Shown one piece after another: positions 5,345-54,564 of a DNA stretch of 64,000 nt (within the stretch, counting starts at the first letter, position 1; every line of letters begins with the position of its first letter). A program made the position numbers and the translations under genes. Source of the DNA: Escherichia coli (GTDB lineage Bacteria; Pseudomonadota; Gammaproteobacteria; Enterobacterales; Enterobacteriaceae); assembly GCF_044324785.1 (NCBI RefSeq), contig NZ_CP172127.1; one strand, 5' to 3'. The notes under the pieces are model-generated. The model did no database searches, was not told where the DNA came from, and worked only from the letters and a program-made list of their open reading frames with translations.

Positions 5345-5353
5345 CTTCTGTCC

Positions 5354-8639: not shown

Positions 8640-8643
8640 CTCA

Positions 8644-9294: not shown

Positions 9295-9305
9295 TCATCA
9301 TCTCC

Positions 9306-10745: not shown

Positions 10746-10761
10746 ATTCCGTCAGTGCTCC

Positions 10762-11709
10762 TTACAGACCGGTTAACCAGAAGACCCAGGCAAGCGCAGC
10801 AAGGCTGAAGCCAAGCCAGGTCACATGGTGAATGAGTAAAAAACGCCCGCGTGCCAGCGTGTTTTCTGCGATTGAGGCCAGAACAAAAATCAGCAAAACC
10901 TTGAGCAGCGTAACGATAAGTGAAGTCAGCAGGCAGGTGAGAGAAAGCTCTTGCGCGCGCCCAAAGGGCAAAAACAGGGCCACAAACAGTGATGCCATCA
11001 CGACCTGTTTCAGCCCCAGCCCCAACTTCGCCAGCGCCAGCCCGGCACCGGAATATTCGGTCAGCGGGCCTTCCTGTAATTCCTGTTCTGCTTCAGCAAC
11101 ATCAAAGGGAATTTTTCCCATCTCAATGAAGCAGGCAAAACCACAGGCCAGTAACGCCAGTACGGTGGTTAGCGGCGAGTTCCAGCCCGTCGCCAGCGTC
11201 TTGCTGATCATCTCGATATGCGTGGAATCCGCTATCAGCGCCAATACCAGCAGTGAGAGAAGGAGCATTGGTTCGACCAGAATGCCGAGCGTCAACTCGC
11301 GACTGGCACCGACTCCCGCAAACGGGCTTCCGGTATCCAGCCCGGAAAGAGCAAAGAAAAAACGAAACAGGGCAAGAAGATAGATAAGGGTGATCAGATC
11401 GCCGCCGCCCGCAAAAGGGGAAACAGTAATAAATAGTGGTAGGGCCATCGCCAGCACCAGCATGCTGCTGATTAATACCCACGGCATCAGGCGGAACATC
11501 AGACCTGAAGATGTCGGCGCAACTTCCTGGCGTTTAAACAGTTTGTGGATATCGCGATAATCCTGCCAGATCCCCGGTCCGCGACGGGAGTGCATACGCG
11601 CGCGTATCTGCCGGGAAATCCCCGTAAAAAGCGGGGTTAGCACCAGCAGAATCACGGCCTGTGCTAACGCAAAAATGATCAGATATCCGTCGCAAAGAGT
11701 TTGTCTCAT
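10762..11709 (-). CDS. hyfC: Hydrogenase-4 membrane subunit HyfC (NuoH/HycD-like)
   Basis: ORF track 322 aa; the second ATG (MRQTLCDGY...) gives 315 aa as in E. coli HyfC. Confidence 0.9.
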   Translation of the reverse strand: MRQTLCDGYLIIFALAQAVILLVLTPLFTGISRQIRARMHSRRGPGIWQDYRDIHKLFKRQEVAPTSSGLMFRLMPWVLISSMLVLAMALPLFITVSPFAGGGDLITLIYLLALFRFFFALSGLDTGSPFAGVGASRELTLGILVEPMLLLSLLVLALIADSTHIEMISKTLATGWNSPLTTVLALLACGFACFIEMGKIPFDVAEAEQELQEGPLTEYSGAGLALAKLGLGLKQVVMASLFVALFLPFGRAQELSLTCLLTSLIVTLLKVLLIFVLASIAENTLARGRFLLIHHVTWLGFSLAALAWVFWLTGL

Positions 11710-11719
11710 GGTGATTTCC

Positions 11720-13738: not shown

Positions 13739-14355
13739 TAGCGTTGCTCCTGAGTGAGGGAAAGGGGATCCTCCCCGCCATTGGCAAACCAGCTTGCGGC
13801 AAGGCGCTGTTTTTCTTTCATCTGGCGTTGCAGGCTATCGTCGGTGATCAGCCGTAACGCCTTATTCGGGCAAGCGCGAACGCATGCCGGACCTTCTGGC
13901 AAGAAATCACACAGGTCGCATTTCACCGCGACGGTCTGGACACCCGGTTCCCAGCGCAGCAACGCATGTTGGGTCGACACGTTTACTTCTCCGTCTTTGA
14001 GTGAGCCCTCAGCCTGAAAAACATATTGCGCAGGGGCATTCACCGGACGGCTTCCTGAAGCGCTGATTGCGCCAAATGGGCAGACCACGGCACAAAGCTT
14101 GCAGCCAATACAGAGGCTTTCGTTGAGTTGGATCGCATCATCCCTCTGGGAGATGGCATTGACCGGGCAGACCTGCAGGCAAGGGGCTTCCTCACAGTGA
14201 TGACACACGACAGGGGCAGTGAGTGTTGACGTCTTCGCCAGGGCCAGGCGCGGGTGTTGCTGTAAACCTTGCGTTTTATGCACGTCCGAACAGGCAGCGA
14301 GACAGGTATTACATCCTGTACACCACAGTGGTTCGGCCACCACAAAGCGGTTCAT
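13738..14355 (-). CDS. hyfA: Hydrogenase-4 ferredoxin-type subunit HyfA (multiple [4Fe-4S])
   Basis: Several CxxCxxCxxxC motifs; the ATG at 14353-14355 with AGGAG 8 nt upstream gives 205 aa; the ORF-track ATG at 14392 lies upstream of the predicted transcription start. Confidence 0.9.
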   Translation of the reverse strand: MNRFVVAEPLWCTGCNTCLAACSDVHKTQGLQQHPRLALAKTSTLTAPVVCHHCEEAPCLQVCPVNAISQRDDAIQLNESLCIGCKLCAVVCPFGAISASGSRPVNAPAQYVFQAEGSLKDGEVNVSTQHALLRWEPGVQTVAVKCDLCDFLPEGPACVRACPNKALRLITDDSLQRQMKEKQRLAASWFANGGEDPLSLTQEQR

Positions 14356-33792: not shown

Positions 33793-33824
33793 ACAAAATC
33801 CCAGATGCGCCCCTAAAAAGAGCA

Positions 33825-33873
33825 CGGACCGTCCCCTCGCCCCTCTGGGGAGAGGGTTAGGGTGAGGGGAACA
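33825..33873. repeat. GC-rich ~49 bp intergenic repeat, copy 1 (between convergent ypfG and tktB)
   Basis: cggaccgtcccctcgcccctctggggagagggttagggtgaggggaaca; internally palindromic; differs at 2 positions from the copy at 47218-47266. Confidence 0.75.
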
Positions 33874-33894
33874 TACAGCATCCGGCGATCACCA

Positions 33895-39728: not shown

Positions 39729-40064
39729 ATGGATAAAGAACGCATCATTCAGGAATTTGTGCCCGGTAAACAGGTCACACTGGCGCATCTCATCGCGCAT
39801 CCCGGCGAGGAACTGGCGAAGAAAATCGGCGTTCCGGATGCGGGCGCAATCGGCATTATGACGCTAACTCCTGGCGAAACGGCGATGATCGCCGGTGATT
39901 TAGCACTAAAAGCCGCCGATGTGCATATCGGTTTTCTCGACCGTTTTAGCGGCGCGTTGGTGATTTATGGCTCGGTGGGTGCAGTAGAAGAAGCGTTATC
40001 ACAAACCGTCAGCGGTTTAGGGCGTTTATTAAATTATACGCTTTGTGAAATGACCAAAAGTTAA
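39729..40064 (+). CDS. eutS: Ethanolamine-utilisation microcompartment shell protein EutS (BMC domain)
   Basis: 111 aa from ATG 39729 ([15 protein letters not shown]...); the ORF track adds 24 upstream codons. Confidence 0.93.
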
Positions 40065-40076
40065 TACGAGGCATTC

Positions 40077-40556
40077 ATGAAACGAATTGCGTTTGTGGGT
40101 ACCGTCGGGGCAGGAAAAACAACGTTATTTAATGCGTTGCAGGGAGATTATACCCTCGCCAGAAAAACGCAGGCCGTAGAATTTAATGATAAGGGTGATA
40201 TTGATACGCCGGGTGAATATTTTAGCCATCCCCGCTGGTATCACGCCTTAATTACCACGCTACAGGATGTGGACATGCTGATCTATGTCCACGGCGCGAA
40301 TGACCCGGAAAGTCGGTTGCCTGCCGGGTTGCTGGATATTGGCGTCAGCAAACGGCAAATCGCCGTCATCAGTAAAACGGACATGCCAGATGCTGACGTC
40401 GCCGCAACGCGAAAGTTATTGCTTGAGACGGGCTTCGAAGAGCCGATTTTCGAGCTAAACAGCCACGACCCGCAAAGCGTGCAGCAACTGGTGGATTATC
40501 TGGCATCTCTCACCGAACAGGAGGAAGCAGGTGAAAAAACTCATTACAGCGAATGA
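40077..40556 (+). CDS. eutP: Ethanolamine-utilisation protein EutP (P-loop GTPase/acetate-kinase-like)
   Basis: 159 aa; P-loop GTVGAGKT. Confidence 0.93.
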   Translation: MKRIAFVGTVGAGKTTLFNALQGDYTLARKTQAVEFNDKGDIDTPGEYFSHPRWYHALITTLQDVDMLIYVHGANDPESRLPAGLLDIGVSKRQIAVISKTDMPDADVAATRKLLLETGFEEPIFELNSHDPQSVQQLVDYLASLTEQEEAGEKTHYSE

Positions 40557-41232
40557 TATTCGTGAAGCACACGCGCGCGGCGAACAGGCAATGTCCGTGG
40601 TTCTGCGCGCCAGCATTATTACCCCGGAAGCCCGTGAAGTGGCGGATCTGTTGGGTTTTACCATCACTGAATGTGATGAATCGACTGCGGTAACGACGTC
40701 TGTTCCCGCCAGCGTGCCAGCCGATAAAACCGAAAGCCAGCGCATCCGCGAAACCATCATCGCCCAGCTGCCGGAAGGCCAGTTTACCGAAAGCCTGGTC
40801 GCGCAGCTGATGGAAAAAGTGATGAAGGAAAAACAGTCACTGGAGCAGGGTGCAATGCAGCCGAGTTTCAAATCGGTTACCGGCAAAGGCGGCATCAAAG
40901 TTATTGATGGCAGCAGCGTCAAGTTTGGTCGTTTTGACGGCGCACAGCCACACTGCGTCGGATTAACGGATCTGGTCACCGGAGACGACGGCAGCAGCAT
41001 GGCCGCTGGTTTTATGCAGTGGGAGAACGCCTTCTTCCCGTGGACCCTGAACTATGACGAAATCGACATGGTACTGGAAGGGGAACTGCACGTTCGCCAC
41101 GAAGGCGAAACCATGATCGCCAAAGCAGGCGACGTGATGTTTATCCCGAAAGGCTCCAGCATCGAATTTGGTACGACATCCAGCGTGAAATTCCTGTATG
41201 TCGCCTGGCCGGCTAACTGGCAATCCCTATGA
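40531..41232 (+). CDS. eutQ: Ethanolamine-utilisation protein EutQ (cupin domain)
   Basis: 233 aa, GTG start; overlaps eutP by 26 nt. Confidence 0.92.
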   Translation: MKKLITANDIREAHARGEQAMSVVLRASIITPEAREVADLLGFTITECDESTAVTTSVPASVPADKTESQRIRETIIAQLPEGQFTESLVAQLMEKVMKEKQSLEQGAMQPSFKSVTGKGGIKVIDGSSVKFGRFDGAQPHCVGLTDLVTGDDGSSMAAGFMQWENAFFPWTLNYDEIDMVLEGELHVRHEGETMIAKAGDVMFIPKGSSIEFGTTSSVKFLYVAWPANWQSL

Positions 41233-42032
41233 AAGATTTCATCACCGAAGCATGGCTAAGAGCGAACCATACGCTCAGCGAAGGCGCAGAGATCCATCTC
41301 CCTGCGGACAGTCGCCTGACGCCCTCTGCCCGGGAGTTGCTGGAAAGCCGCCATCTGCGCATCAAGTTTATTGACGAGCAGGGCCGCCTGTTTGTTGACG
41401 ATGAACAGCAGCAGCCGCAGCCCGTTCATGGGCTGACCAGTAGCGATGAACATCCGCAGGCGTGCTGCGAACTGTGCCGCCAGCCGGTGGCGAAAAAGCC
41501 GGATACGCTGACTCACCTGTCGGCGGAAAAAATGGTCGCCAAAAGCGATCCGCGCCTGGGTTTTCGCGCTGTTCTCGACAGCACCATTGCGCTGGCAGTG
41601 TGGCTGCAAATTGAACTGGCAGAACCGTGGCAGCCATGGCTGGCGGACATCCGCTCGCGTCTTGGCAACATTATGCGCGCCGATGCGCTGGGGGAACCGC
41701 TGGCCTGCCAGGCGATTGTCGGGCTTTCTGACGAAGATCTGCATCGGCTTTCTCACCAGCCGCTGCGCTATCTTGGTCACGATCATCTGGTGCCGGAAGC
41801 CAGCCACGGGCGCGATGCGGCGTTGCTCAATCTGCTACGCACCAAAGTGCGGGAAACCGAAACCGTGGCGGCGCAGGTCTTTATCACCCGCAGCTTTGAA
41901 GTATTACGCCCGGACATCTTGCAGGCGCTGAACCGCCTTTCCAGCACGGTCTACGTGATGATGATCCTGAGCGTAGCGAAACAACCGCTAACGGTGAAGC
42001 AGATCCAACAACGACTGGGGGAAACGCAATGA
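41229..42032 (+). CDS. eutT: Corrinoid adenosyltransferase EutT
   Basis: 267 aa; ATGA overlap with eutQ. Confidence 0.93.
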
Positions 42033-43045
42033 TTATTGAACGTTGTCGTGAACTGGCGTTGCGAGCGCCCGCCAGAGTGGTATTTCCGGATGCGTTAGAT
42101 CAACGTGTGCTGAAAGCTGCGCAATATTTACATCAACAAGGTCTGGCAACGCCCATTCTGGTCGCCAATCCGTTTGAACTTCGTCAGTTTGCGCTCAGTC
42201 ACGGCGTGGCGATGGACGGGCTACAGGTGATAGATCCGCATGGCAACCTCGCAATGCGGGAAGAATTTGCTCTCCGCTGGCTGGCCCGTGCGGGCGAAAA
42301 AACGCCGCCGGATGCGCTGGAAAAACTCACCGATCCGCTGATGTTCGCTGCCGCAATGGTCAGCGCCGGGACAGCGGATGTTTGCATTGCGGGCAATCTC
42401 TCTTCCACGGCGAATGTGCTGCGTGCCGGATTACGCATTATTGGCTTACAGCCAGGCTGTAAAACGCTCTCCTCCATTTTCCTGATGCTGCCGCAGTACA
42501 GCGGCCCGGCGTTGGGCTTTGCCGATTGCAGCGTGGTGCCACAGCCGACGGCGGCGCAGCTGGCGGATATCGCGCTTGCCAGCGCCGAAACCTGGCGCGC
42601 CATCACCGGAGAAGAGCCGCGCGTGGCGATGTTGTCGTTTTCCAGTAACGGCAGCGCCCGTCACCCCTGCGTTGCCAACGTCCAGCAGGCGACAGAAATC
42701 GTCCGTGAGCGCGCGCCGCAGTTGGTAGTCGATGGCGAGTTGCAGTTTGACGCCGCCTTCGTGCCGGAAGTGGCGGCGCAAAAAGCGCCTGCCAGCCCAC
42801 TACAAGGCAAAGCCAATGTGATGGTTTTTCCGTCGCTGGAAGCCGGAAATATTGGCTACAAAATCGCACAACGACTCGGCGGATATCGTGCCGTCGGGCC
42901 ATTGATACAAGGACTTGCCGCGCCGATGCACGATCTCTCTCGTGGTTGTAGCGTGCAGGAAATTATCGAGCTGGCGCTGGTGGCAGCTGTGCCGCGTCAG
43001 ACAGAAGTAAACCGTGAAAGCAGTTTACAAACACTGGTTGAATGA
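42029..43045 (+). CDS. eutD: Phosphotransacetylase EutD (EutI)
   Basis: 338 aa PTA-family ORF; ATGA overlap with eutT. Confidence 0.94.
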
Positions 43046-43083
43046 ACGGTCCCGTTCTGGACCCTGATAAAGAGGAAAGCACA

Positions 43084-43377
43084 ATGGAAGCATTAGGAAT
43101 GATCGAAACCCGGGGCCTGGTTGCACTGATTGAGGCTTCTGACGCGATGGTGAAAGCTGCGCGCGTCAAGCTGGTTGGTGTTAAGCAGATTGGCGGCGGC
43201 CTGTGTACTGCCATGGTTCGTGGTGATGTTGCAGCCTGTAAAGCCGCGACCGACGCAGGTGCTGCAGCGGCACAGCGTATCGGCGAGCTGGTATCTGTAC
43301 ACGTTATCCCGCGTCCGCACGGCGACCTGGAAGAAGTCTTCCCGATCGGCCTCAAAGGCGATAGCAGCAACCTGTAA
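43084..43377 (+). CDS. eutM: Major microcompartment shell protein EutM (BMC-H)
   Basis: 97 aa from ATG 43084 ([26 protein letters not shown]...) with GAGGAAA RBS. Confidence 0.95.
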
Positions 43378-43386
43378 TCACCCTGT

Positions 43387-43408
43387 GTGACGTCGATTCG
43401 GGCGTCAC
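43387..43408 (+). other. Hairpin (gtgacg-N10-cgtcac) followed by a T-rich tract in the eutM-eutN spacer
   Basis: 6-bp stem then ctctctcctttttcatttt; a possible weak attenuator within the operon. Confidence 0.3.
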
Positions 43409-43483
43409 GCTCTCTCCTTTTTCATTTTACCTTCCGCGGAGGGTAGGGGGAGCTTTTACCTGAAATACGCCACGGAGGCGGGT

Positions 43484-43771
43484 ATGAAACTGGCAGTCGT
43501 CACTGGACAAATTGTTTGTACCGTACGCCATCACGGACTGGCGCATGACAAATTGCTGATGGTGGAAATGATTGATCCACAAGGTAATCCTGACGGGCAA
43601 TGCGCCGTCGCCATCGACAATATTGGCGCGGGAACCGGGGAGTGGGTGTTGCTGGTGAGTGGCAGTTCCGCCCGCCAGGCGCATAAAAGCGAAACGTCAC
43701 CGGTCGATCTGTGCGTGATTGGCATCGTCGATGAGGTGGTGTCTGGCGGTCAGGTAATTTTCCACAAATAA
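43484..43771 (+). CDS. eutN: Microcompartment vertex protein EutN (BMC-P family)
   Basis: 95 aa matching E. coli EutN. Confidence 0.94.
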   Translation: MKLAVVTGQIVCTVRHHGLAHDKLLMVEMIDPQGNPDGQCAVAIDNIGAGTGEWVLLVSGSSARQAHKSETSPVDLCVIGIVDEVVSGGQVIFHK

Positions 43772-43782
43772 GGCAGAACATC

Positions 43783-45186
43783 ATGAATCAACAGGATATT
43801 GAACAGGTGGTGAAAGCGGTACTGCTGAAAATGCAAAGCAGTGACACGCCGCCCGCCGCCGTTCATGAGATGGGCGTTTTCGCGTCCCTGGATGACGCCG
43901 TTGCGGCAGCCAAAATTGCCCAGCAAGGGTTAAAAAGCGTGGCAATGCGCCAGTTAGCCATTGCTGCCATTCGTGAGGCAGGCGAAAAACACGCCAGAGA
44001 TTTAGCGGAACTTGCCGTCAGTGAAACCGGCATGGGCCGCGTCGAAGATAAATTTGCCAAAAACGTCGCTCAGGCGCGCGGCACACCAGGCGTTGAGTGC
44101 CTCTCTCCGCAAGTGCTGACAGGCGACAACGGCCTGACTTTAATTGAAAACGCGCCCTGGGGCGTGGTGGCTTCGGTGACGCCTTCCACTAACCCGGCGG
44201 CAACCGTAATTAACAACGCCATCAGCCTGATTGCCGCGGGCAACAGCGTCATTTTTGCCCCGCATCCGGCGGCGAAAAAAGTCTCCCAGCGGGCGATTAC
44301 GCTGCTCAACCAGGCGATTGTTGCCGCAGGCGGGCCGGAAAACTTACTGGTTACTGTGGCCAATCCGGATATCGAAACCGCACAACGCTTGTTCAAGTTT
44401 CCGGGTATTGGCCTTTTGGTGGTGACCGGCGGCGAAGCGGTAGTAGAAGCGGCGCGTAAACACACCAATAAACGTCTGATTGCCGCAGGTGCCGGTAACC
44501 CGCCGGTAGTGGTGGATGAAACCGCCGACCTCGCCCGTGCCGCTCAGTCCATCGTTAAAGGTGCTTCTTTCGATAACAACATCATTTGTGCCGACGAAAA
44601 GGTACTGATTGTTGTTGATAGCGTAGCCGATGAACTGATGCGTCTGATGGAAGGCCAGCACGCGGTGAAACTGACCGCAGAGCAGGCGCAGCAGCTACAA
44701 CCGGTGTTGCTGAAAAATATCGACGAGCGCGGAAAAGGCACCGTCAGCCGTGACTGGGTTGGTCGCGATGCGGCGAAAATCGCGGCGGCAATCGGCCTTA
44801 AAGTTCCGGAACAAACGCGACTGCTGTTTGTGGAAACCACTGCAGAACATCCGTTTGCCGTGACTGAACTGATGATGCCGGTGCTGCCCGTCGTGCGCGT
44901 CGCCAACGTGGCGGATGCCATTGCGCTGGCGGTGAAACTGGAAGGCGGTTGCCACCACACGGCGGCAATGCACTCGCGCAATATCGAGAACATGAACCAG
45001 ATGGCGAATGCCATTGATACCAGCATTTTCGTTAAGAACGGACCGTGCATTGCCGGGCTGGGGCTGGGCGGGGAAGGCTGGACCACCATGACCATCACCA
45101 CGCCAACCGGTGAAGGGGTAACCAGCGCGCGGACGTTTGTCCGTCTGCGTCGCTGTGTATTAGTCGATGCGTTTCGCATTGTTTAA
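43783..45186 (+). CDS. eutE: Acetaldehyde dehydrogenase (CoA-acetylating) EutE
   Basis: 467 aa aldehyde-dehydrogenase-family ORF. Confidence 0.95.
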   Translation: MNQQDIEQVVKAVLLKMQSSDTPPAAVHEMGVFASLDDAVAAAKIAQQGLKSVAMRQLAIAAIREAGEKHARDLAELAVSETGMGRVEDKFAKNVAQARGTPGVECLSPQVLTGDNGLTLIENAPWGVVASVTPSTNPAATVINNAISLIAAGNSVIFAPHPAAKKVSQRAITLLNQAIVAAGGPENLLVTVANPDIETAQRLFKFPGIGLLVVTGGEAVVEAARKHTNKRLIAAGAGNPPVVVDETADLARAAQSIVKGASFDNNIICADEKVLIVVDSVADELMRLMEGQHAVKLTAEQAQQLQPVLLKNIDERGKGTVSRDWVGRDAAKIAAAIGLKVPEQTRLLFVETTAEHPFAVTELMMPVLPVVRVANVADAIALAVKLEGGCHHTAAMHSRNIENMNQMANAIDTSIFVKNGPCIAGLGLGGEGWTTMTITTPTGEGVTSARTFVRLRRCVLVDAFRIV

Positions 45187-45196
45187 GGAGTAACCG

Positions 45197-46033
45197 ATGG
45201 CGCACGACGAACAATGGCTCACCCCTCGACTGCAAACGGCGGCAACGCTGTGTAACCAGACGCCCGCCGCGACGGAATCTCCGCTGTGGCTGGGGGTGGA
45301 TCTGGGCACCTGCGATGTGGTGTCGATGGTTGTCGACTGCGACGGTCAGCCGGTGGCGGTATGTCTCGACTGGGCCGATGTGGTCCGCGACGGCATCGTC
45401 TGGGATTTCTTCGGTGCGGTCACCATTGTTCGTCGCCATCTCGACACCCTCGAGCAGCAATTCGGTCGCCGTTTTAGCCATGCGGCGACCTCTTTTCCTC
45501 CAGGTACGGATCCGCGTATTTCCATCAACGTGCTGGAGTCTGCCGGGCTGGAAGTGAGCCATGTGCTGGATGAGCCAACCGCAGTCGCGGATCTGCTGCA
45601 ACTGGACAACGCCGGTGTAGTGGATATCGGCGGCGGCACCACCGGCATTGCCATCGTGAAAAAGGGCAAGGTGACTTACTCGGCAGATGAAGCCACCGGC
45701 GGACATCATATCTCTCTGACTCTCGCCGGAAATCGCCGTATTTCGCTGGAAGAGGCGGAGCAGTACAAGCGCGGTCACGGTGAAGAGATTTGGCCTGCGG
45801 TGAAACCGGTGTACGAAAAAATGGCGGACATTGTCGCCCGGCATATTGAAGGGCAGGGCATTACTGATTTATGGCTGGCGGGCGGCTCTTGTATGCAACC
45901 GGGCGTGGCGGAACTGTTTCGCAAACAATTCCCGGCGTTACAGGTGCATTTACCGCAGCACAGTTTGTTTATGACCCCGCTGGCGATCGCCAGTAGCGGG
46001 CGAGAGAAAGCGGAGGGGCTATATGCAAAATGA
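45197..46033 (+). CDS. eutJ: Ethanolamine-utilisation chaperone-like ATPase EutJ (actin/Hsp70 fold)
   Basis: 278 aa; DLGTCD and VDIGGGTTG sugar-kinase/Hsp70 motifs. Confidence 0.94.
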   Translation: MAHDEQWLTPRLQTAATLCNQTPAATESPLWLGVDLGTCDVVSMVVDCDGQPVAVCLDWADVVRDGIVWDFFGAVTIVRRHLDTLEQQFGRRFSHAATSFPPGTDPRISINVLESAGLEVSHVLDEPTAVADLLQLDNAGVVDIGGGTTGIAIVKKGKVTYSADEATGGHHISLTLAGNRRISLEEAEQYKRGHGEEIWPAVKPVYEKMADIVARHIEGQGITDLWLAGGSCMQPGVAELFRKQFPALQVHLPQHSLFMTPLAIASSGREKAEGLYAK

Positions 46034-47210
46034 ATTGCAGACCGCGCTCTTTCAGGCGTTCGATACCCTGAATCTGCAACGGGTAAAAACATTTAGCGTT
46101 CCACCGGTGACGCTTTGCGGTCCGGGCGCGATGAGCAGTTGCGGGCAGCAAGCGCAAACGCGTGGGCTGAAACATCTGTTCGTGATGGCAGACAGCTTTT
46201 TGCATCAGGCGGGGATGACCGCCGGGCTGACGCGTAGCCTGGCCGTTAAAGGTATCGCCATGACGCTCTGGCCATGTCCGGTGGGCGAACCGTGCATCAC
46301 CGACGTGTGTGCAGCCGTGGCGCAGTTGCGTGAATCAGGTTGTGACGGGGTGATCGCGTTTGGCGGCGGCTCGGTGCTGGATGCGGCGAAAGCCGTGGCG
46401 TTGCTGGTGACAAACCCGGATAGCACGCTGGCAGAAATGTCAGAAACCAGCGTTCTGCAACCGCGCCTGCCGTTGATTGCCATTCCAACGACCGCCGGAA
46501 CCGGCTCTGAAACCACCAACGTAACGGTGATTATCGACGCGGTGAGCGAGCGCAAGCAGGTGTTAGCCCATGCCTCGCTGATGCCGGATGTGGCGATTCT
46601 TGACGCCGCATTGACCGAAGGTGTGCCGTCGCATGTCACGGCGATGACCGGTATCGACGCGTTAACTCATGCCATTGAAGCGTACAGCGCGCTGAACGCC
46701 ACACCGTTTACCGACAGTCTGGCGATTGGCGCTATTGCGATGATTGGCAAATCGCTGCCGAAAGCGGTGGGCTACGGTCACGACCTTGCCGCGCGCGAGA
46801 GCATGTTGCTGGCTTCATGTATGGCGGGAATGGCGTTTTCCAGTGCGGGGCTTGGGTTATGCCACGCGATGGCGCATCAGCCGGGGGCGGCGCTGCATAT
46901 TCCGCACGGTCTGGCGAACGCCATGCTACTGCCAACGGTGATGGAGTTTAACCGGATGGTCTGTCGTGATCGGTTTAGTCAGATTGGTCGGGCGCTGACA
47001 AACAAGAAAACTGACGAGCGCGAGGTAATTAGCGTGATAAGCGAGCTGATTGCGGAAGTTGGGATCAACAAGCGGCTGGCTGATGTGGGCGCAACCACCG
47101 GACATTACCGCGCATGGGCGCAGGCCGCGATGGAAGATATTTGTCTGCGCAGCAACCCGCGTACCGCCAGCCTGGAGCAGATTATTGGTCTGTATGCTGC
47201 GGCGCAATAA
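46023..47210 (+). CDS. eutG: Iron-containing alcohol dehydrogenase EutG
   Basis: 395 aa Fe-ADH-family ORF; overlaps eutJ by 11 nt. Confidence 0.94.
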   Translation: MQNELQTALFQAFDTLNLQRVKTFSVPPVTLCGPGAMSSCGQQAQTRGLKHLFVMADSFLHQAGMTAGLTRSLAVKGIAMTLWPCPVGEPCITDVCAAVAQLRESGCDGVIAFGGGSVLDAAKAVALLVTNPDSTLAEMSETSVLQPRLPLIAIPTTAGTGSETTNVTVIIDAVSERKQVLAHASLMPDVAILDAALTEGVPSHVTAMTGIDALTHAIEAYSALNATPFTDSLAIGAIAMIGKSLPKAVGYGHDLAARESMLLASCMAGMAFSSAGLGLCHAMAHQPGAALHIPHGLANAMLLPTVMEFNRMVCRDRFSQIGRALTNKKTDEREVISVISELIAEVGINKRLADVGATTGHYRAWAQAAMEDICLRSNPRTASLEQIIGLYAAAQ

Positions 47211-47217
47211 AAGTGTA

Positions 47218-47335
47218 CGGACAGTCCCCTCGCCCCTTTGGGGAGAGGGTTAGGGTGAGGGGAACAGAGTCGCGCCGGTGCAAACAATTACCCTCACCCC
47301 GGCCCCTCGGCTTCCAGAGTGAGGGAAAAACCCAC
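47218..47335. repeat. GC-rich intergenic repeat, copy 2, plus downstream inverted partial copies, between eutG and eutH
   Basis: 47218-47266 cggacagtcccctcgcccctttggggagagggttagggtgaggggaaca; 47291-47300 ccctcacccc is the reverse complement of the gggtgagggg core, and gagtgaggg recurs at ~47318. Confidence 0.75.
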
Positions 47336-47379
47336 TTTCAGCATTGGCAATAAATAACAACTAACAGGGAGTAAAGGTG

Positions 47380-48606
47380 ATGGGAATTAACGAAATCATC
47401 ATGTACATCATGATGTTCTTTATGCTGATAGCTGCCGTAGACAGGATCCTGTCGCAGTTCGGTGGTTCTGCTCGTTTCCTCGGTAAGTTCGGTAAAAGTA
47501 TCGAAGGATCAGGCGGTCAGTTCGAAGAAGGCTTTATGGCAATGGGCGCACTGGGCCTGGCGATGGTTGGTATGACCGCGCTGGCACCGGTACTGGCCCA
47601 CGTACTCGGGCCGGTGATTATCCCGGTTTACGAAATGCTCGGCGCAAACCCGTCAATGTTCGCCGGAACACTGCTGGCGTGCGATATGGGCGGCTTCTTC
47701 CTCGCCAAAGAGCTGGCGGGCGGCGACGTAGCAGCGTGGCTATACTCTGGGTTAATTCTCGGGTCGATGATGGGGCCAACGATTGTGTTTTCCATTCCGG
47801 TGGCGCTCGGCATTATCGAACCTTCTGACCGTCGTTATCTGGCGCTCGGCGTGCTGGCGGGCATTGTGACCATTCCAATTGGTTGTATCGCCGGTGGCCT
47901 GGTGGCTATGTACTCCGGTGTACAGATCAACGGCCAGCCGGTGGAATTCACCTTTGCGCTTATCCTGATGAACATGATCCCGGTACTTATCGTCGCGGTA
48001 CTGGTGGCGCTGGGGCTGAAATTCATCCCGGAAAAAATGATCAACGGCTTCCAGATCTTCGCCAAATTCCTCGTTGCATTGATCACCCTCGGTCTTGCTG
48101 CCGCGGTAGTGAAATTCCTGCTTGGCTGGGAACTGATCCCCGGTCTGGATCCTATCTTTATGGCCCCTGGCGATAAACCCGGTGAAGTGATGCGCGCCAT
48201 TGAAGTTATCGGTTCTATCTCCTGCGTTCTGTTAGGGGCGTACCCGATGGTACTGCTGCTGACTCGCTGGTTTGAAAAACCGCTGATGAGCGTCGGTAAG
48301 GTGCTGAATATGAACAATATCGCGGCAGCTGGCATGGTGGCAACGCTTGCCAACAACATCCCAATGTTTGGCATGATGAAGCTGATGGATACCCGCGGCA
48401 AAGTCATCAACTGCGCCTTCGCCGTTTCCGCTGCTTTCGCCCTGGGTGACCACTTAGGCTTCGCCGCTGCCAACATGAACGCCATGATTTTCCCGATGAT
48501 TGTCGGCAAATTGATCGGCGGCGTAACGGCGATTGGCGTGGCGATGATGCTGGTGCCAAAAGAAGACGCGACCGCGGCTAAAACCGAAGCGGAGGCACAA
48601 TCGTGA
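47380..48606 (+). CDS. eutH: Ethanolamine permease/facilitator EutH
   Basis: 408 aa polytopic membrane protein from ATG 47380 (GGGAG RBS). Confidence 0.94.
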   Translation: MGINEIIMYIMMFFMLIAAVDRILSQFGGSARFLGKFGKSIEGSGGQFEEGFMAMGALGLAMVGMTALAPVLAHVLGPVIIPVYEMLGANPSMFAGTLLACDMGGFFLAKELAGGDVAAWLYSGLILGSMMGPTIVFSIPVALGIIEPSDRRYLALGVLAGIVTIPIGCIAGGLVAMYSGVQINGQPVEFTFALILMNMIPVLIVAVLVALGLKFIPEKMINGFQIFAKFLVALITLGLAAAVVKFLLGWELIPGLDPIFMAPGDKPGEVMRAIEVIGSISCVLLGAYPMVLLLTRWFEKPLMSVGKVLNMNNIAAAGMVATLANNIPMFGMMKLMDTRGKVINCAFAVSAAFALGDHLGFAAANMNAMIFPMIVGKLIGGVTAIGVAMMLVPKEDATAAKTEAEAQS

Positions 48607-50006
48607 ACACTCGCCAGCTACTGAGCGTCGGTATCGATATCGGCACCACCACCACCCAGGTGATCTTCTCCCACCTGGAACTGGTTAACCGTGCGGCGGT
48701 GTCGCAGGTGCCGCGCTACGAATTCATCAAACGCGAAATTAGCTGGCAAAGCCCGGTGTTCTTTACCCCTGTCGATAAACAGGGTGGTTTAAAAGAAGCG
48801 GAACTGAAATCGCTGATTTTAGAGCAATATCAGGCTGCGGGCATTGCGCCGGAAAGCGTTGATTCTGGTGCCATCATCATCACCGGTGAAAGCGCGAAAA
48901 CCCGCAACGCTCGCCCGGCGGTGATGACGCTCTCCCAGTCGCTGGGCGATTTTGTCGTCGCCAGCGCCGGGCCGCATCTCGAATCCGTGATCGCCGGTCA
49001 CGGTGCCGGGGCGCAAACCCTTTCTGAACAACGGCTGTGTCGGGTACTGAATATCGACATCGGCGGTGGCACCGCGAACTACGCCCTGTTCGATGCCGGA
49101 AAAATCAGCGGCACTGCCTGCCTCAACGTTGGCGGTCGCCTGCTGGAAACCGACAGCCAGGGGCGCGTGGTTTACGCTCATATACCGGGGCAGATGATTG
49201 TGGATGAGTGCTTCGGTGCAGGCACTGACGCCCGTTCGCTGACCGGCACGCAGTTGGTGCAGGTTACCCGGCGGATGGCAGAACTGATTGTCGAAGTGAT
49301 TGACGGAACGCTCTCGCCGCTCGCGCAGGCATTGATGCAAACCGGTTTGTTGCCCGCAGGTGTTACGCCCGAAATCATTACGCTTTCTGGCGGCGTGGGC
49401 GAATGTTATCGCCACCAGCCCGCCGACCCGTTCTGTTTTGCCGATATCGGCCCGCTTCTGGCAACGGCGCTGCATGACCATCAGCGCCTGCGTGAGATGA
49501 ACGTGCAGTTTCCAGCGCAAACCGTGCGCGCCACGGTGATTGGCGCGGGCGCACATACCCTTTCGCTCTCTGGCAGCACAATCTGGCTGGAGGGCGTACA
49601 ACTGCCGCTGCGCAATTTGCCGGTGGCGATCCCAATTGATGAAACGGATCTGGTGAGTGCCTGGCAACAGGCGCTGATTCAGCTGGATCTTTGCCCCAAA
49701 ACTGACGCGTACGTGCTGGCGCTTCCCGCCTCGCTGCCTGTGCGTTACGCCGCGGTACTGACGGTCATCAACGCGCTGGTCGATTTCGTCGCGCGTTTTC
49801 CGAATCCGCATCCCCTGCTGGTGGTGGCCGGGCAGGACTTTGGTAAAGCTCTGGGCATGTTGTTGCGCCCACAGCTACAACAACTCCCGTTGGCAGTCAT
49901 TGACGAAGTGATTGTCCGCGCGGGGGACTATATCGACATTGGTACGCCTCTTTTTGGCGGATCGGTTGTGCCGGTGACGGTGAAATCACTCGCATTTCCT
50001 TCCTGA
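48603..50006 (+). CDS. eutA: Ethanolamine ammonia-lyase reactivase EutA
   Basis: 467 aa, GTG start overlapping the eutH stop (GTGA). Confidence 0.94.
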   Translation: MNTRQLLSVGIDIGTTTTQVIFSHLELVNRAAVSQVPRYEFIKREISWQSPVFFTPVDKQGGLKEAELKSLILEQYQAAGIAPESVDSGAIIITGESAKTRNARPAVMTLSQSLGDFVVASAGPHLESVIAGHGAGAQTLSEQRLCRVLNIDIGGGTANYALFDAGKISGTACLNVGGRLLETDSQGRVVYAHIPGQMIVDECFGAGTDARSLTGTQLVQVTRRMAELIVEVIDGTLSPLAQALMQTGLLPAGVTPEIITLSGGVGECYRHQPADPFCFADIGPLLATALHDHQRLREMNVQFPAQTVRATVIGAGAHTLSLSGSTIWLEGVQLPLRNLPVAIPIDETDLVSAWQQALIQLDLCPKTDAYVLALPASLPVRYAAVLTVINALVDFVARFPNPHPLLVVAGQDFGKALGMLLRPQLQQLPLAVIDEVIVRAGDYIDIGTPLFGGSVVPVTVKSLAFPS

Positions 50007-50017
50007 GGGAACGACTT

Positions 50018-51379
50018 ATGAAACTAAAGACCACATTGTTCGGCAATGTATATCAGTTTAAGGATGTAAAAGAGGTGCTGGCTAAAGCCAACGAACTGCG
50101 TTCGGGGGATGTGCTGGCGGGCGTTGCAGCGGCAAGCTCACAAGAGCGCGTGGCGGCAAAGCAGGTGTTGTCGGAAATGACCGTAGCGGACATCCGCAAT
50201 AATCCGGTGATTGCCTATGAAGATGACTGCGTGACGCGGCTGATTCAGGACGACGTTAACGAAACGGCCTACAACCAGATTAAAAACTGGAGCATCAGCG
50301 AACTGCGTGAGTATGTGCTGAGCGATGAAACCAGCGTGGACGACATTGCCTTTACCCGCAAAGGGCTGACCTCGGAAGTGGTCGCGGCGGTAGCGAAGAT
50401 TTGCTCCAACGCGGACCTGATCTACGGCGCGAAGAAAATGCCGGTAATCAAAAAGGCCAATACCACCATCGGTATTCCGGGCACCTTTAGCGCCCGTTTG
50501 CAGCCAAATGACACCCGTGACGACGTGCAAAGTATCGCCGCGCAAATCTACGAAGGGCTTTCCTTCGGGGTGGGCGATGCGGTGATCGGCGTTAACCCGG
50601 TGACTGACGATGTGGAAAACTTAAGCCGCGTGTTGGACACCATTTACGGCGTGATCGACAAATTCAACATTCCGACCCAGGGCTGCGTGCTGGCGCACGT
50701 CACCACCCAGATTGAAGCGATCCGTCGTGGCGCACCAGGCGGGCTGATTTTCCAGAGTATCTGCGGCAGCGAAAAAGGGCTGAAAGAATTTGGCGTGGAG
50801 CTGGCGATGCTCGATGAAGCACGCGCAGTGGGCGCGGAGTTCAACCGTATCGCCGGGGAAAACTGCCTCTACTTCGAAACCGGACAAGGCTCTGCGCTGT
50901 CCGCTGGCGCTAACTTCGGCGCAGACCAGGTGACGATGGAAGCACGTAACTATGGGCTGGCGCGTCATTACGATCCGTTTATCGTCAACACCGTGGTCGG
51001 CTTTATTGGGCCGGAGTATCTCTACAACGACCGCCAGATTATCCGTGCGGGCTTAGAAGATCACTTTATGGGTAAGCTGAGCGGCATCTCTATGGGCTGT
51101 GACTGCTGCTACACCAACCACGCTGACGCTGACCAGAACCTCAACGAAAACCTCATGATCCTGCTCGCCACCGCAGGCTGCAACTACATCATGGGGATGC
51201 CGCTGGGTGATGACATCATGCTCAACTACCAGACCACCGCCTTCCACGATACTGCCACTGTGCGTCAGTTACTCAACCTGCGCCCGTCACCGGAGTTTGA
51301 ACGCTGGCTGGAAAGCATGGGCATTATGGCAAACGGTCGCCTGACCAAACGGGCGGGCGATCCGTCACTGTTCTTCTGA
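50018..51379 (+). CDS. eutB: Ethanolamine ammonia-lyase large subunit EutB
   Basis: 453 aa; begins 11 bp after eutA with no inserted DNA. Confidence 0.96.
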   Translation: MKLKTTLFGNVYQFKDVKEVLAKANELRSGDVLAGVAAASSQERVAAKQVLSEMTVADIRNNPVIAYEDDCVTRLIQDDVNETAYNQIKNWSISELREYVLSDETSVDDIAFTRKGLTSEVVAAVAKICSNADLIYGAKKMPVIKKANTTIGIPGTFSARLQPNDTRDDVQSIAAQIYEGLSFGVGDAVIGVNPVTDDVENLSRVLDTIYGVIDKFNIPTQGCVLAHVTTQIEAIRRGAPGGLIFQSICGSEKGLKEFGVELAMLDEARAVGAEFNRIAGENCLYFETGQGSALSAGANFGADQVTMEARNYGLARHYDPFIVNTVVGFIGPEYLYNDRQIIRAGLEDHFMGKLSGISMGCDCCYTNHADADQNLNENLMILLATAGCNYIMGMPLGDDIMLNYQTTAFHDTATVRQLLNLRPSPEFERWLESMGIMANGRLTKRAGDPSLFF

Positions 51380-51399
51380 TGACGCGGAGATAACACATC

Positions 51400-52284
51400 A
51401 TGGATCAAAAACAGATTGAAGAAATTGTACGCAGCGTGATGGCGTCAATGGGACAAGCGGCCCCCGCGCCGTCAGAAGCAAAGTGCGCCACCACCTATGC
51501 GGCACCGGTGACCTCGGAAAGCTGCGCGCTGGATTTAGGCTCTGCGGAAGCAAAAGCGTGGATTGGCGTTGAAAACCCGCATCGCGCAGACGTATTAACA
51601 GAACTGCGTCGCAGCACCGTGGCCCGCGTTTGTACCGGTCGTGCCGGTCCGCGTCCGCGTACCCAGGCGTTGCTGCGTTTCCTGGCCGATCACTCTCGTT
51701 CGAAAGATACCGTACTGAAAGAAGTGCCGGAAGAGTGGGTGAAAGCGCAGGGCTTGCTGGAAGTCCGCTCTGAAATTAGCGACAAAAATCTCTACCTGAC
51801 TCGTCCGGATATGGGCCGCCGCCTGTGTGCAGAAGCTGTTGAAGCGCTGAAAGCACAGTGTGTTGCTAATCCGGACGTGCAGGTCGTTATTTCTGATGGC
51901 CTGTCAACTGATGCGATCACCGTGAACTACGAAGAGATCCTGCCGCCGCTGATGGCGGGCCTGAAACAGGCCGGGCTGAAAGTCGGTACACCATTCTTTG
52001 TTCGTTATGGTCGCGTGAAGATTGAAGATCAGATCGGTGAGATCCTCGGCGCGAAAGTGGTGATCCTGCTGGTGGGGGAACGCCCGGGATTAGGGCAGTC
52101 AGAAAGCCTCTCCTGCTACGCCGTTTACTCGCCGCGTATGGCAACCACCGTTGAGGCCGATCGCACCTGCATCTCTAACATTCACCAGGGCGGCACGCCG
52201 CCGGTTGAAGCCGCAGCCGTCATTGTGGATTTGGCGAAACGTATGCTGGAGCAGAAAGCATCCGGCATCAACATGACCCGATAA
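51400..52284 (+). CDS. eutC: Ethanolamine ammonia-lyase small subunit EutC
   Basis: 294 aa matching E. coli EutC. Confidence 0.95.
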
Positions 52285-52293
52285 GGAGGCATC

Positions 52294-52953
52294 ATGCCAG
52301 CTTTAGATTTGATTCGACCGTCGGTAACCGCCATGCGGGTGATTGCCTCCGTTAACGCCGAATTTGCGCGTGAACTGAAATTGCCGCCGCATATTCGTAG
52401 CCTCGGGCTGATTTCTGCTGATTCCGATGACGTCACCTACATTGCGGCTGACGAAGCGACCAAGCAGGCGATGGTGGAAGTGGTGTATGGACGCTCGCTG
52501 TATGCGGGAGCCGCACACGGCCCGTCACCGACTGCCGGTGAAGTGCTGATTATGCTTGGTGGGCCAAACCCGGCGGAAGTGCGTGCTGGTCTGGATGCGA
52601 TGGTTGCGCATATTGAAAATGGCGCGGCTTTCCAGTGGGCTAATGACGCAGAAAACACAGCCTTCCTGGCACATGTAGTTTCGCGTACCGGTTCTTATCT
52701 CTCATCAACCGCCGGGATCACGCTTGGCGATCCGATGGCGTATCTGGTGGCACCGCCGCTGGAAGCGACCTATGGCATTGATGCAGCCCTGAAATCTGCC
52801 GACGTGCAACTGGTGACCTACGTACCGCCGCCGTCTGAAACCAACTACTCGGCAGCATTTTTAACCGGTAGCCAGGCCGCGTGTAAAGCAGCCTGTAACG
52901 CCTTTACCGATGCAGTGCTGGAAATCGCGCGTAATCCAATCCAGCGTGCGTAA
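52294..52953 (+). CDS. eutL: Microcompartment shell protein EutL (tandem BMC domains)
   Basis: 219 aa matching E. coli EutL. Confidence 0.95.
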
Positions 52954-52965
52954 CGGAGGTTGCCG

Positions 52966-53466
52966 ATGATCAATGCACTGGGATTGCTGGAAGTGGACGG
53001 CATGGTCGCCGCGATAGATGCTGCGGATGCCATGCTCAAAGCAGCTAACGTTCGTCTGCTCAGTCACGAAGTGCTTGACCCTGGTCGCCTAACGCTGGTG
53101 GTGGAAGGCGATCTGGCGGCGTGTCGTGCGGCGCTGGACGCAGGTTGTGCTGCCGCGATGCGTACCGGGCGTGTCATCAGCCGTAAGGAGATCGGTCGGC
53201 CAGACGATGACACCCAGTGGCTGGTTACTGGCTTTAACCGCCAGCCGAAGCAACCCGTAAAGGAACCCGACGCGCCAGTTATCGTCGCGGAATCTGCTGA
53301 CGAGTTGTTGGCGCTGTTAACATCAGTACGTCAGGGAATGACGGCAGGAGAAGTGGCTGCCCACTTTGGCTGGCCGCTGGAAAAAGCCAGAAATGCGCTC
53401 GAACAGCTCTTTTCTGCCGGGACGTTACGTAAACGCAGTAGTCGTTATCGTCTCAAGCCCCATTAA
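52966..53466 (+). CDS. eutK: Microcompartment shell protein EutK (BMC domain plus C-terminal helix-turn-helix-like tail)
   Basis: 166 aa from ATG 52966 (ACGGAGG RBS); the ORF track starts 2 codons earlier at TTG. Confidence 0.93.
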   Translation: MINALGLLEVDGMVAAIDAADAMLKAANVRLLSHEVLDPGRLTLVVEGDLAACRAALDAGCAAAMRTGRVISRKEIGRPDDDTQWLVTGFNRQPKQPVKEPDAPVIVAESADELLALLTSVRQGMTAGEVAAHFGWPLEKARNALEQLFSAGTLRKRSSRYRLKPH

Positions 53467-53478
53467 CCTGTCGGAGGT

Positions 53479-53502
53479 GCCGGGTGTCCTACAACACCCG
53501 GC
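53479..53502 (+). other. 9-bp-stem hairpin (gccgggtgt-cctaca-acacccggc) between eutK and eutR
   Basis: Perfect inverted repeat 12 bp after the eutK stop and 10 bp before the eutR ATG; no U-tract. Confidence 0.4.
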
Positions 53503-53511
53503 ATTAACATC

Positions 53512-54564
53512 ATGAAAAAGACCCGTACAGCCAATTTGCACCATCTTTATCATGAACCCTTACCCGAAAACCTGAAGCTCACGCCGAAGGTCGAAGTGGA
53601 TAATGTTCATCAACGACAGACAACGGATGTCTATGAACATGCTTTGACAATTACCGCCTGGCAGCAGATTTACGATCAGCTGCATCCGGGCAAGTTTCAT
53701 GGTGAATTTACGGAAATTCTACTCGATGATATTCAGGTTTTTCGTGAATACACCGGTCTGGCGCTGCGTCAGTCGTGCCTGGTCTGGCCGAACTCGTTCT
53801 GGTTTGGCATTCCGGCGACGCGCGGTGAGCAGGGATTTATCGGTTCGCAATGTCTGGGAAGTGCAGAAATAGCCACGCGGCCTGGCGGCACTGAGTTTGA
53901 ATTGAGTACGCCGGACGATTACACCATCCTTGGCGTGGTGCTTTCTGAAGATGTCATTACCCGGCAGGCTAACTTTTTGCATAACCCGGAGCGGGTGTTG
54001 CATATGTTGCGTCACCAGTCGGCGCTGGAAGTGAAAGAGCAGCATAAAGCCGCGCTGTGGGGCTTTGTCCAACAGGCGCTGGCGACGTTTTGCGAGAACC
54101 CGGAAAATCTCCATCAGCCTGCAGTGCGAAAAGTGTTGGGGGATAATTTGCTCATGGCGATGGGGGCGATGCTGGAAGAAGCGCAACCAATGGTGACGGC
54201 GGAAAGCATCAGTCATCAGAGTTACCGTAGATTACTTTCCCGCGCCCGTGAATATGTGCTGGAAAATATGTCTGAGCCGGTGACGGTGCTGGACTTGTGT
54301 AATCAACTGCATGTCAGTCGCCGCACGCTACAAAACGCGTTTCACGCTATTTTAGGCATTGGCCCGAACGCGTGGCTGAAACGCATTCGCCTGAACGCCG
54401 TACGCCGCGAACTGATAAGCCCGTGGTCGCAAAGCACAACGGTAAAAGACGCCGCCATGCAGTGGGGATTCTGGCATCTGGGGCAATTCGCCACGGATTA
54501 CCAGCAGCTGTTTGCCGAGAAGCCGTCACTGACGCTGCATCAGCGGATGCGGGAATGGGGGTGA
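53512..54564 (+). CDS. eutR: AraC-family transcriptional activator EutR
   Basis: 350 aa with a C-terminal AraC-type HTH; last gene of the eut cluster. Confidence 0.94.

Follow-up and report, generated by a model that had tools for sequence, protein, structure and literature searches.

The 64,000-nt stretch of Escherichia coli DNA analysed here (the window; contig NZ_CP172127.1, assembly GCF_044324785.1) carries on the plus strand an intact 17-gene eut operon (39729-54564), in which every ORF is uninterrupted. The genes lie on one strand in the order eutSPQTDMNEJGHABCLKR, which is identical in other Escherichia, Citrobacter and Klebsiella loci, and presumably the same in Salmonella. Co-transcription of the operon is established for both Salmonella and E. 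coli. The locus is the canonical eut operon of E. coli, free of the prophage which splits the K-12 copy. The eut operon of Salmonella enterica LT2 similarly includes 17 genes, and the same 17 Eut proteins are all named in PMC12487888; all of them have been detected in the Salmonella ethanolamine-induction proteome PXD059040. EutQ spans 229 residues in Salmonella and 233 in the window.

The genes relevant to this work, all on the plus strand, are eutP (40077..40556, 159 aa), eutQ (40531..41232, 233 aa), eutT (41229..42032, 267 aa), eutD (42029..43045, 338 aa), eutJ (45197..46033, 278 aa), eutG (46023..47210, 395 aa), eutH (47380..48606, 408 aa) and eutA (48603..50006, 467 aa). Both eutQ and eutA start at GTG; the annotated ATG of eutH (47380) is preceded by an in-frame GTG one codon upstream (47377). 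EutP, EutQ, EutT, EutJ, EutG, EutH and EutA all exceed the curated NCBIfam cut-offs. Equivalog matches run end-to-end in EutP (NF012011, 1-159/159), EutQ (1-233/233), EutT (1-267/267), EutG (1-395/395) and EutA (1-467/467), and the match of EutJ (residues 2-271 of 278) is the sole one among these proteins which does not. EutD, of the pta type, matches pta/phosphotransacetylase models. The RefSeq annotation of E. coli N3 (98.4% identity) gives the eut genes the same starts as in the window. No RNA element was matched in Rfam between 39000 and 55000 at E≤1, and Pfam matched none of the six longest ORFs on the opposite strand (181-330 aa), which were discarded as genes. A hairpin is found at 43385-43410 in the eut region.

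All five gene overlaps called in the original prediction are present in the DNA, and the RefSeq starts of E. coli N3 agree with them. eutP and eutQ overlap by 26 nt (40531..40556), from the GTG start of eutQ to the TGA stop of eutP; the eutQ SD (AGGAGG, 40519..40524; duplex -10.3 kcal/mol) lies inside eutP, 6 nt 5' of the GTG, in the region encoding the poorly conserved C-terminal tail of EutP. eutJ and eutG overlap by 11 nt (46023..46033, ATGCAAAATGA), and eutG is preceded by the SD GGAGG (46012-46016, -10.0 kcal/mol). The other three overlaps are 4-nt fused stop and start codons: ATGA at eutQ/eutT (41229..41232), where an upstream SD is absent (-1.7 kcal/mol), ATGA at eutT/eutD (42029..42032), with the SD GGGGGA at 42017-42022 (-8.4 kcal/mol), and GTGA at eutH/eutA (48603..48606), with the SD GGAGG at 48591-48595 (-9.5 kcal/mol). 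A consensus scan of the sequence alone found neither promoter-like nor terminator-like sites at the five junctions. An EutP-EutQ fusion formed by frameshifting at the run of six A residues at 40534-40539 was considered and rejected, as the run does not form an X XXY YYZ heptamer when read in the frame of eutP; moreover, its nucleotides are not conserved (K. oxytoca has GTGAAGAAAC, Entomohabitans ATGAAAACATT).

The overlaps had been described as pervasive, which is an overstatement. They involve 5 of the 16 eut junctions, and this frequency is not above background. In the hyf operon, which resides in the same window, 4 of 11 junctions overlap (Fisher p=1.0). In the annotated 48.3-kb stretch located upstream of eut in E. 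coli N3, the last 40 kb of which align to window positions 1-40110, overlaps were found at 6 of 31 other co-directional neighbours (p=0.47 vs eut), or at 6 of 19 when only gaps <30 nt are considered (p=0.71).

Which junctions overlap is, by contrast, far from random. The comparison covered 80 eut loci of other species, a set which does not include Salmonella DNA, with the first in-frame stop codon taken as gene end; the loci are phylogenetically related, and were dereplicated to 26 clusters. The T/D overlap was found in 59/59 loci and 17/17 clusters; its length varies (-1, -4, -10, -11 and -14) and has changed at least four times, never giving rise to a non-overlapping state. The J/G genes overlap in 49/56 loci (12/16 clusters), -11 being the most frequent length even in diverged sequences, and the P/Q genes in 52/67 loci (14/20 clusters), with an overlap of 23 nt in Citrobacter and Klebsiella loci vs 26 nt in the window. 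The H/A overlap (35/55 loci, 6/16 clusters) is found mainly in Enterobacterales and in one Telmatospirillum MAG, and the Q/T overlap (14/58 loci, 1/17 clusters) is lineage-specific. At each of the remaining 11 eut junctions overlaps were found in 0-3 loci. The cluster counts of the T/D, P/Q, J/G and H/A junctions differ from the 0-2 clusters found at any other junction (Fisher p from 3e-11 to 3e-3), though the conserved overlap may partly mirror inheritance, because the compared loci are kin. The overlap state is junction-specific, and conserved across beta- and gamma-proteobacteria. Constraints on protein termini could, along with inheritance, account for part of this conservation; the C-terminal tails of EutP, EutT, EutJ and EutH are weakly conserved, and vary in length between taxa.

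The same alignments bear on the GTG codons, which are well supported as the true starts of both eutQ and eutA. Across 55-67 other eut loci the start of each gene aligns with the GTG of the window, and distant taxa use ATG at this position. In the 67 loci in which the eutQ start could be aligned the codon is GTG in Escherichia, Citrobacter and Klebsiella, and ATG elsewhere; that of eutA is ATG in Morganella, Pluralibacter and Pseudomonas. The two GTGs probably represent a lineage-specific switch from ATG within Enterobacteriaceae, which probably lowers initiation somewhat. Translation from them would give the N-terminal peptides (M)KKLITANDIR in EutQ and (M)N/KTRQLLSVGIDIGTTTTQVIFSR in EutA. 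One could argue that the overlaps are annotation artefacts, created by longest-ORF calling which places the starts too far upstream, the true ones being located downstream, as at Met21 of EutQ. All five annotated starts are indeed the first possible ones past the preceding in-frame stop, and two are GTG. This reading is hardly tenable, however, given that distant taxa have ATG at the codons homologous to the two GTGs, each of which is preceded by an SD 5-8 nt upstream, and that the protein sequence encoded ahead of the next candidate start is conserved, MKKLITANDIR in EutQ, where it is kept across Proteobacteria, and xxxLLSVGIDIGTTTTQ in EutA. The downstream candidates lack SDs: the next ATG of eutQ is codon 21 (-2.1), and the next in-frame start of eutA is codon 20, which lies 3' of the conserved GIDIGTTTTQ motif. 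Furthermore, the N-terminal helix H1 of Salmonella EutQ (residues 9-21) is needed for shell-cargo association, and deletion of these residues destroys function (PMC12487888).

A full-text literature search retrieved zero papers on translational coupling or start-site mapping in eut. Coupling at the eut overlaps is plausible, given their conservation and the behaviour of other overlapping genes. Reporter assays showed strict coupling for 13 of the 14 native overlapping pairs examined (PMC6728339). For coupling to occur, genes have to overlap or lie very close together, spacings of -8..+10 nt being predictive of reinitiation, which was nearly lost in E. coli reporters at gaps of ~20 nt (PMC10666635). 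Among the pairs used in coupling experiments is hyfH-hyfI (PMC6728339, PMC10666635), which resides in this same window (4799-4802, minus strand). The coupled pairs and the eut genes alike are co-directional members of one operon, exhibit NTGA overlaps, and have SDs which lie within the 3' end of the preceding gene. Q/T, T/D and H/A fit the stop/start spacing of up to ~10 nt which marks coupled pairs; J/G (-11) and P/Q (-26) overlap as well, yet fall outside the -8..+10 range of PMC10666635. A further difference from the coupled pairs is that eutT lacks an SD.

Where stop and start are fused as NTGA (Q/T, T/D and H/A), a ribosome which terminates at the UGA would already sit on the next start codon and would reinitiate there (termination-reinitiation). 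The case for coupling seems most compelling for eutQ and eutT, because eutT has no SD: reinitiation is probably its sole efficient route, and eutT output would consequently be linked to eutQ translation. All five distinct junctions at which Q/T overlap lack the SD, whereas 68% of 34 non-overlapping Q/T junctions have one. In Intestinirhabdus, a single genus, eutT starts at GTG, and likewise lacks an SD; the association between overlap and SD loss is suggested by one clade. The downstream starts at J/G and P/Q carry the strongest SDs of the five, and two initiation routes probably operate there, short-range back-scanning of terminating ribosomes, and fresh 30S binding at a site which upstream ribosomes hold unfolded. 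Long, out-of-frame overlaps of this kind may be modelled on the coat-lysis overlaps of the phages MS2 and fr (-38 to -50 nt). In fr, initiation at the downstream gene depends on upstream termination and on backward movement of the ribosome, back-scanning having been demonstrated at -38 and -50 nt, while in MS2 coupling by RNA unfolding, in which the terminating ribosome holds the downstream site unfolded, has been proposed at -50 nt (PMC12548453). Unlike the phage genes, the eut starts bear strong SDs and may not need coupling; a regulatory role is not known. The overlaps would probably keep the accessory enzymes at coordinated and, in general, low levels of expression.

The overlaps could also be viewed as products of neutral compaction or of drift of stop and start codons, each gene being translated from its own SD and coupling being functionally irrelevant. 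The strong SDs preceding eutQ, eutD, eutG and eutA, four of the five downstream genes, could allow independent initiation; the tails of EutP, EutT, EutJ and EutH are variable, and a dispensable tail running on to the next stop would generate an overlap. Overlap frequency in eut equals the local background, and bioB-bioF, an overlapping E. coli pair tested by Huber et al., is uncoupled and initiates independently (PMC6728339). In addition, predicted RBS opening energies are alike at overlapping and non-overlapping junctions (Mann-Whitney p=0.46), so that a structural signature of enforced coupling is absent. On the other hand, drift does not readily explain why the same junctions have stayed overlapping in beta- and gamma-proteobacteria alike while overlap lengths have changed, with T/D invariably so, nor why eutT, when overlapping eutQ, always lacks an SD, the GTG-starting gene of Intestinirhabdus included; and nearly all tested overlapping pairs are coupled (PMC6728339). 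Neutral drift as the whole explanation seems to us unlikely. The reading favoured here, which we hold to be probable as a whole, is that the overlaps are genuine, correctly annotated and ordinary operon junctions, at which reinitiation is proposed, that the GTG codons are true starts, and that ratios of complex subunits are not set by them.

The last point concerns the proposal that coupling helps to set subunit stoichiometry. Of the overlapping pairs, eutT/eutD encode an adenosyltransferase and a phosphotransacetylase, eutJ/eutG a putative chaperone and an alcohol dehydrogenase, and eutH/eutA a permease and a reactivase; none of these three pairs of products is known to form a heteromer. The literature checked does not report EutT-EutD or EutH-EutA complexes, and includes none of the five pairs among known heteromers. 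The notion that the overlaps fix the ratios of co-assembling subunits finds some support in the 4.5-fold enrichment of short overlaps for subunits of heteromeric complexes in E. coli (PMC10666635), and in the apparent importance of EutQ levels for compartment assembly (PMC12487888). Yet, of the E. coli pairs with spacings of -8..+10 nt only 30.4% code for subunits of a complex, and the other 69.6% of closely spaced pairs do not (PMC10666635). EutP and EutJ are cytosolic, whereas EutQ and EutG are encapsulated (PMC12487888). The true partners, EutB/EutC and the shell proteins, are encoded by genes which do not overlap: eutB/eutC, eutM/eutN and eutL/eutK are separated in the window by 20, 106 and 12 nt, and are likewise free of overlap in 62/63, 78/78 and 59/59 other loci, respectively, hence overlap in at most one of 59-78 loci. 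A role in stoichiometry, as first proposed, is very improbable, and the separation of true complex partners counts against the popular shortcut equating overlap with stoichiometry in the eut operon.

That the choice of starts and junctions matters for engineering holds true. In Salmonella the overlap of eutP with eutQ codons 1-9 has been explicitly noted, and these codons were retained because they overlap eutP (PMC12487888). In deleting, tagging or refactoring eut genes ~30-40 nt should be kept on each side of a junction, a flank which includes the SD inside the preceding gene, the fused stop/start and the GTG starts; its removal is expected to reduce downstream expression, that of eutT above all. 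The Salmonella field already preserves such junctions, and the value of the finding is mainly practical. The eut overlaps are an ordinary operon feature, already annotated and known; what is mildly new is the comparative observation that a junction-specific overlap is kept across beta- and gamma-proteobacterial eut operons. A bolder view, which we regard as possible though doubtful, is that the conserved overlaps (T/D in all loci, P/Q and J/G in most) are obligate coupling modules, and that in Escherichia and Klebsiella eutT is translated only by ribosomes which finish eutQ. If so, adenosyltransferase supply would be hard-wired to the level of EutQ, the shell-cargo adaptor, and coupling of eutJ to eutG might mirror a relation between the EutJ chaperone and its EutG client.

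A complete eut operon of 17 genes, in which every ORF is intact, resides on the + strand of the window: eutS (39729-40064), eutP (40077-40556), eutQ (40531-41232), eutT (41229-42032), eutD (42029-43045), eutM (43084-43377), eutN (43484-43771), eutE (43783-45186), eutJ (45197-46033), eutG (46023-47210), eutH (47380-48606), eutA (48603-50006), eutB (50018-51379), eutC (51400-52284), eutL (52294-52953), eutK (52966-53466) and eutR (53512-54564). Of 5,426 complete E. coli genomes, all but one (5,425) carry the region 40531-50006, at up to 98.4% identity. Gene boundaries in the RefSeq annotation of the best-matching genome are those of the window, and the 40 kb upstream of eut are colinear with that genome (98.9% identity). 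EutP, EutQ, EutT, EutG, EutH and EutA match NCBIfam equivalogs end to end, and the EutJ match covers residues 2-271 of 278. In K-12 the operon is split by a prophage between eutA and eutB; here the two genes are only 11 nt apart (50007-50017), and therefore a K-12-type prophage is absent, and the operon uninterrupted. In the best-matching genome, E. coli N3, eutT has an internal stop and eutR is frameshifted, and both are annotated as pseudogenes; either gene is intact in the window.

The five overlaps listed in the original prediction are all exact. eutP and eutQ overlap by 26 nt, the GTG start of eutQ lying within eutP; eutQ/eutT and eutT/eutD share ATGA, eutJ/eutG overlap by 11 nt (ATGCAAAATGA), and eutH/eutA share GTGA. 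The remaining eleven gaps measure 12, 38, 106, 11, 10, 169, 11, 20, 9, 12 and 45 nt. Overlaps had been called pervasive, but their rate (5 of 16 junctions) matches that of neighbouring operons. In hyf, the hydrogenase-4 operon on the minus strand (3638-14355), 4 of 11 junctions overlap: hyfA/B by 1 nt (13738), hyfF/G by 11 nt (7059-7069), hyfH/I by 4 nt (4799-4802) and hyfI/J by 8 nt (4044-4051). Other co-directional neighbours upstream of eut overlap in 6 of 31 cases (annotated 48.3-kb stretch, the last 40 kb of which align to the window), and the eut rate does not differ significantly from either. The local rate agrees with the literature, according to which distances of -4 and -1 far outnumber any other between co-directional genes of prokaryotes, and about one gene in three has an overlapping neighbour (PMC10666635, PMC12548453). 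A G-rich element with inverted repeats lies in the 169-nt eutG-eutH spacer (47211-47379). Over 58 nt (47209-47266) it matches, at 93% identity, a second copy located between ypfG and tkt (about 33817-33874), and is therefore a dispersed, REP/BIME-like intergenic repeat; taken in full, the spacer is no more stably folded than shuffled sequence (z -0.81).

Across species, the eut overlaps recur at particular junctions. Eighty eut loci of other species were retrieved with an EutE query, and the 17 genes mapped by tblastn. Among informative loci (in brackets, among the 26 clusters formed at >=85% EutE identity), overlaps were found at eutT/eutD in 59/59 (17/17), at eutJ/eutG in 49/56 (12/16), at eutP/eutQ in 52/67 (14/20), at eutH/eutA in 35/55 (6/16) and at eutQ/eutT in 14/58 (1/17), each of the other eleven junctions overlapping in 0-3 loci. 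Contrasts with neighbouring junctions gave Fisher p values from 3e-11 to 3e-3, which overstate independence, since the loci are related. Overlap sequences are not simply frozen, as lengths turn over: -1, -4, -10, -11 and -14 at eutT/eutD, -4, -17, -23 and -26 at eutP/eutQ, -1, -4, -8, -11, -14 and -26 at eutJ/eutG. The C-terminal tails of the upstream proteins are weakly conserved, and rich in Gly and Glu codons spelling the downstream Shine-Dalgarno (SD) sequence; the N-termini of the downstream proteins are conserved. Outside enterics, ATGA is the widespread state at eutP/eutQ, and the enteric 23-26-nt overlap arose when the eutP tail changed frame and read on to the next stop. The eutQ/eutT overlap is recent: only Escherichia, Klebsiella, some Citrobacter and Intestinirhabdus have it, and in them the spacer which holds the SD in other taxa has been lost. 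Where such a spacer measures 7-13 nt, it carries an SD; the SD is absent in 5/5 distinct overlapping eutQ/eutT junctions, and present in 68% of the 34 non-overlapping ones. eutT (start at 41229) lacks an SD in the window and in every relative with the overlap (as in loci L007, L008 and L025, the last from Intestinirhabdus, where eutT also starts with GTG).

None of the five downstream genes has a possible start between its annotated one and the preceding in-frame stop, and therefore an annotation artefact had to be excluded. In virtually all loci the eutQ start aligns to one and the same codon, which is GTG in Escherichia, Citrobacter, Klebsiella and Intestinirhabdus, and ATG in Buttiauxella, Entomohabitans, Serratia, Pluralibacter, Morganella, Pseudomonas, Chromobacterium, Thauera and others; the N-terminus M-K-K/T/Q-L-I-T/S-A is kept throughout. 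eutA starts with GTG in Enterobacteriaceae and Hafnia, with ATG elsewhere, and an invariant SVGIDxGTTT motif follows within 9 residues. Anti-SD duplex energies are -10.3 (eutQ), -8.4 (eutD), -10.0 (eutG) and -9.5 (eutA) kcal/mol; the nearest downstream candidates, eutQ ATG codon 21 (-2.1) and eutA GTG codon 20 (-1.7), are essentially without SD. In Salmonella, the N-terminal helices H1/H2 of EutQ (residues 9-41) bind the shell, loss of residues 9-21 alone leaves shell and cargo apart, and eutQ codons 1-9 overlap eutP (PMC12487888). Conserved starts and N-termini, SD sites and the Salmonella data thus make the GTG starts of eutQ and eutA, as originally proposed, well supported. The eutH ORF opens with GTGATG (47377-47382): RefSeq places the start at the ATG (47380), and the preceding GTG (47377) shares its frame and is 5 nt away from a GGGAG SD.

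Junction geometry, SD sites and conservation are observed directly; by analogy with other gene pairs, the overlaps may support translational coupling. In reporter experiments, for which hyfH-hyfI of the window was one of the E. coli pairs used, 13 of 14 native overlapping pairs were strictly coupled, the SD contribution ranged from none to essential, and coupling collapsed at a gap of about 20 nt (PMC6728339, PMC10666635). In the light of these data, reinitiation of the terminating ribosome on the next gene would be the most likely mode at eutQ/eutT, eutT/eutD and eutH/eutA, and would be nearly obligatory for eutT. The start precedes the stop by 8 nt at eutJ/eutG and by 23 nt at eutP/eutQ. Phage fr offers a demonstrated case of backward scanning across distances of this order, at its coat-lysis overlap; for the corresponding overlap of MS2, the terminating ribosome is proposed to unfold the site (PMC12548453). 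Because the SD sites are very strong, assisted de novo initiation would be equally plausible at these two junctions. Predicted opening energies around ribosome-binding sites did not distinguish overlapping from non-overlapping eut junctions (p=0.46), hence no structural sign of blocked independent initiation emerged. Literature searches retrieved no published coupling tests on eut.

The notion that overlaps set subunit stoichiometry finds no support, as overlapping pairs are not known heteromers, and real partners do not overlap. We know of no overlapping eut pair forming a complex with its neighbour; the pairs are accessory enzymes. EutB/EutC, the one classical heteromer, are encoded 20 nt apart in the window, and by non-overlapping genes in 62 of 63 other loci. 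Shell genes never overlap, here (eutM/eutN gap 106 nt, eutL/eutK gap 12 nt) or in other loci. In Salmonella, EutP and EutJ are cytosolic, whereas EutQ and EutG are encapsulated (PMC12487888), and 69.6% of closely spaced E. coli pairs are not complex subunits (PMC10666635).

The eutM-eutN spacer (43378-43483, 106 nt) is structured (MFE -42.2 kcal/mol, z -2.69). A stable, GC-rich 10-bp hairpin with a terminator-like score (43385-43410) begins 8 nt past the eutM stop, and a second one follows at about 43412-43452. Strong hairpins recur here in other Proteobacteria: of 60 distinct spacers between eutM and eutN, each 60 nt or longer, 90% reach -15 kcal/mol or lower in the first 60 nt (median z -2.4), the stem sequences being unrelated between lineages. 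The hairpin resembles stem-loops of operons subject to selective RNA processing and stabilisation (PMC4423207, PMC8219983); no eut-specific paper on it was found in the literature. It may act as an mRNA 3'-stabiliser or a partial terminator, raising EutM, the major shell protein, over EutN, the vertex protein. Though adjoining the original claim rather than part of it, it would be a more plausible stoichiometry device than the overlaps.

Coupling at shared ATGA or GTGA junctions is textbook matter. The eut overlaps are already in public annotation, that of eutP/eutQ is mentioned in print (PMC12487888), and the finding as such is known. What is mildly new comes from the comparison of loci, namely that overlap is specific to particular junctions of the eut operon.
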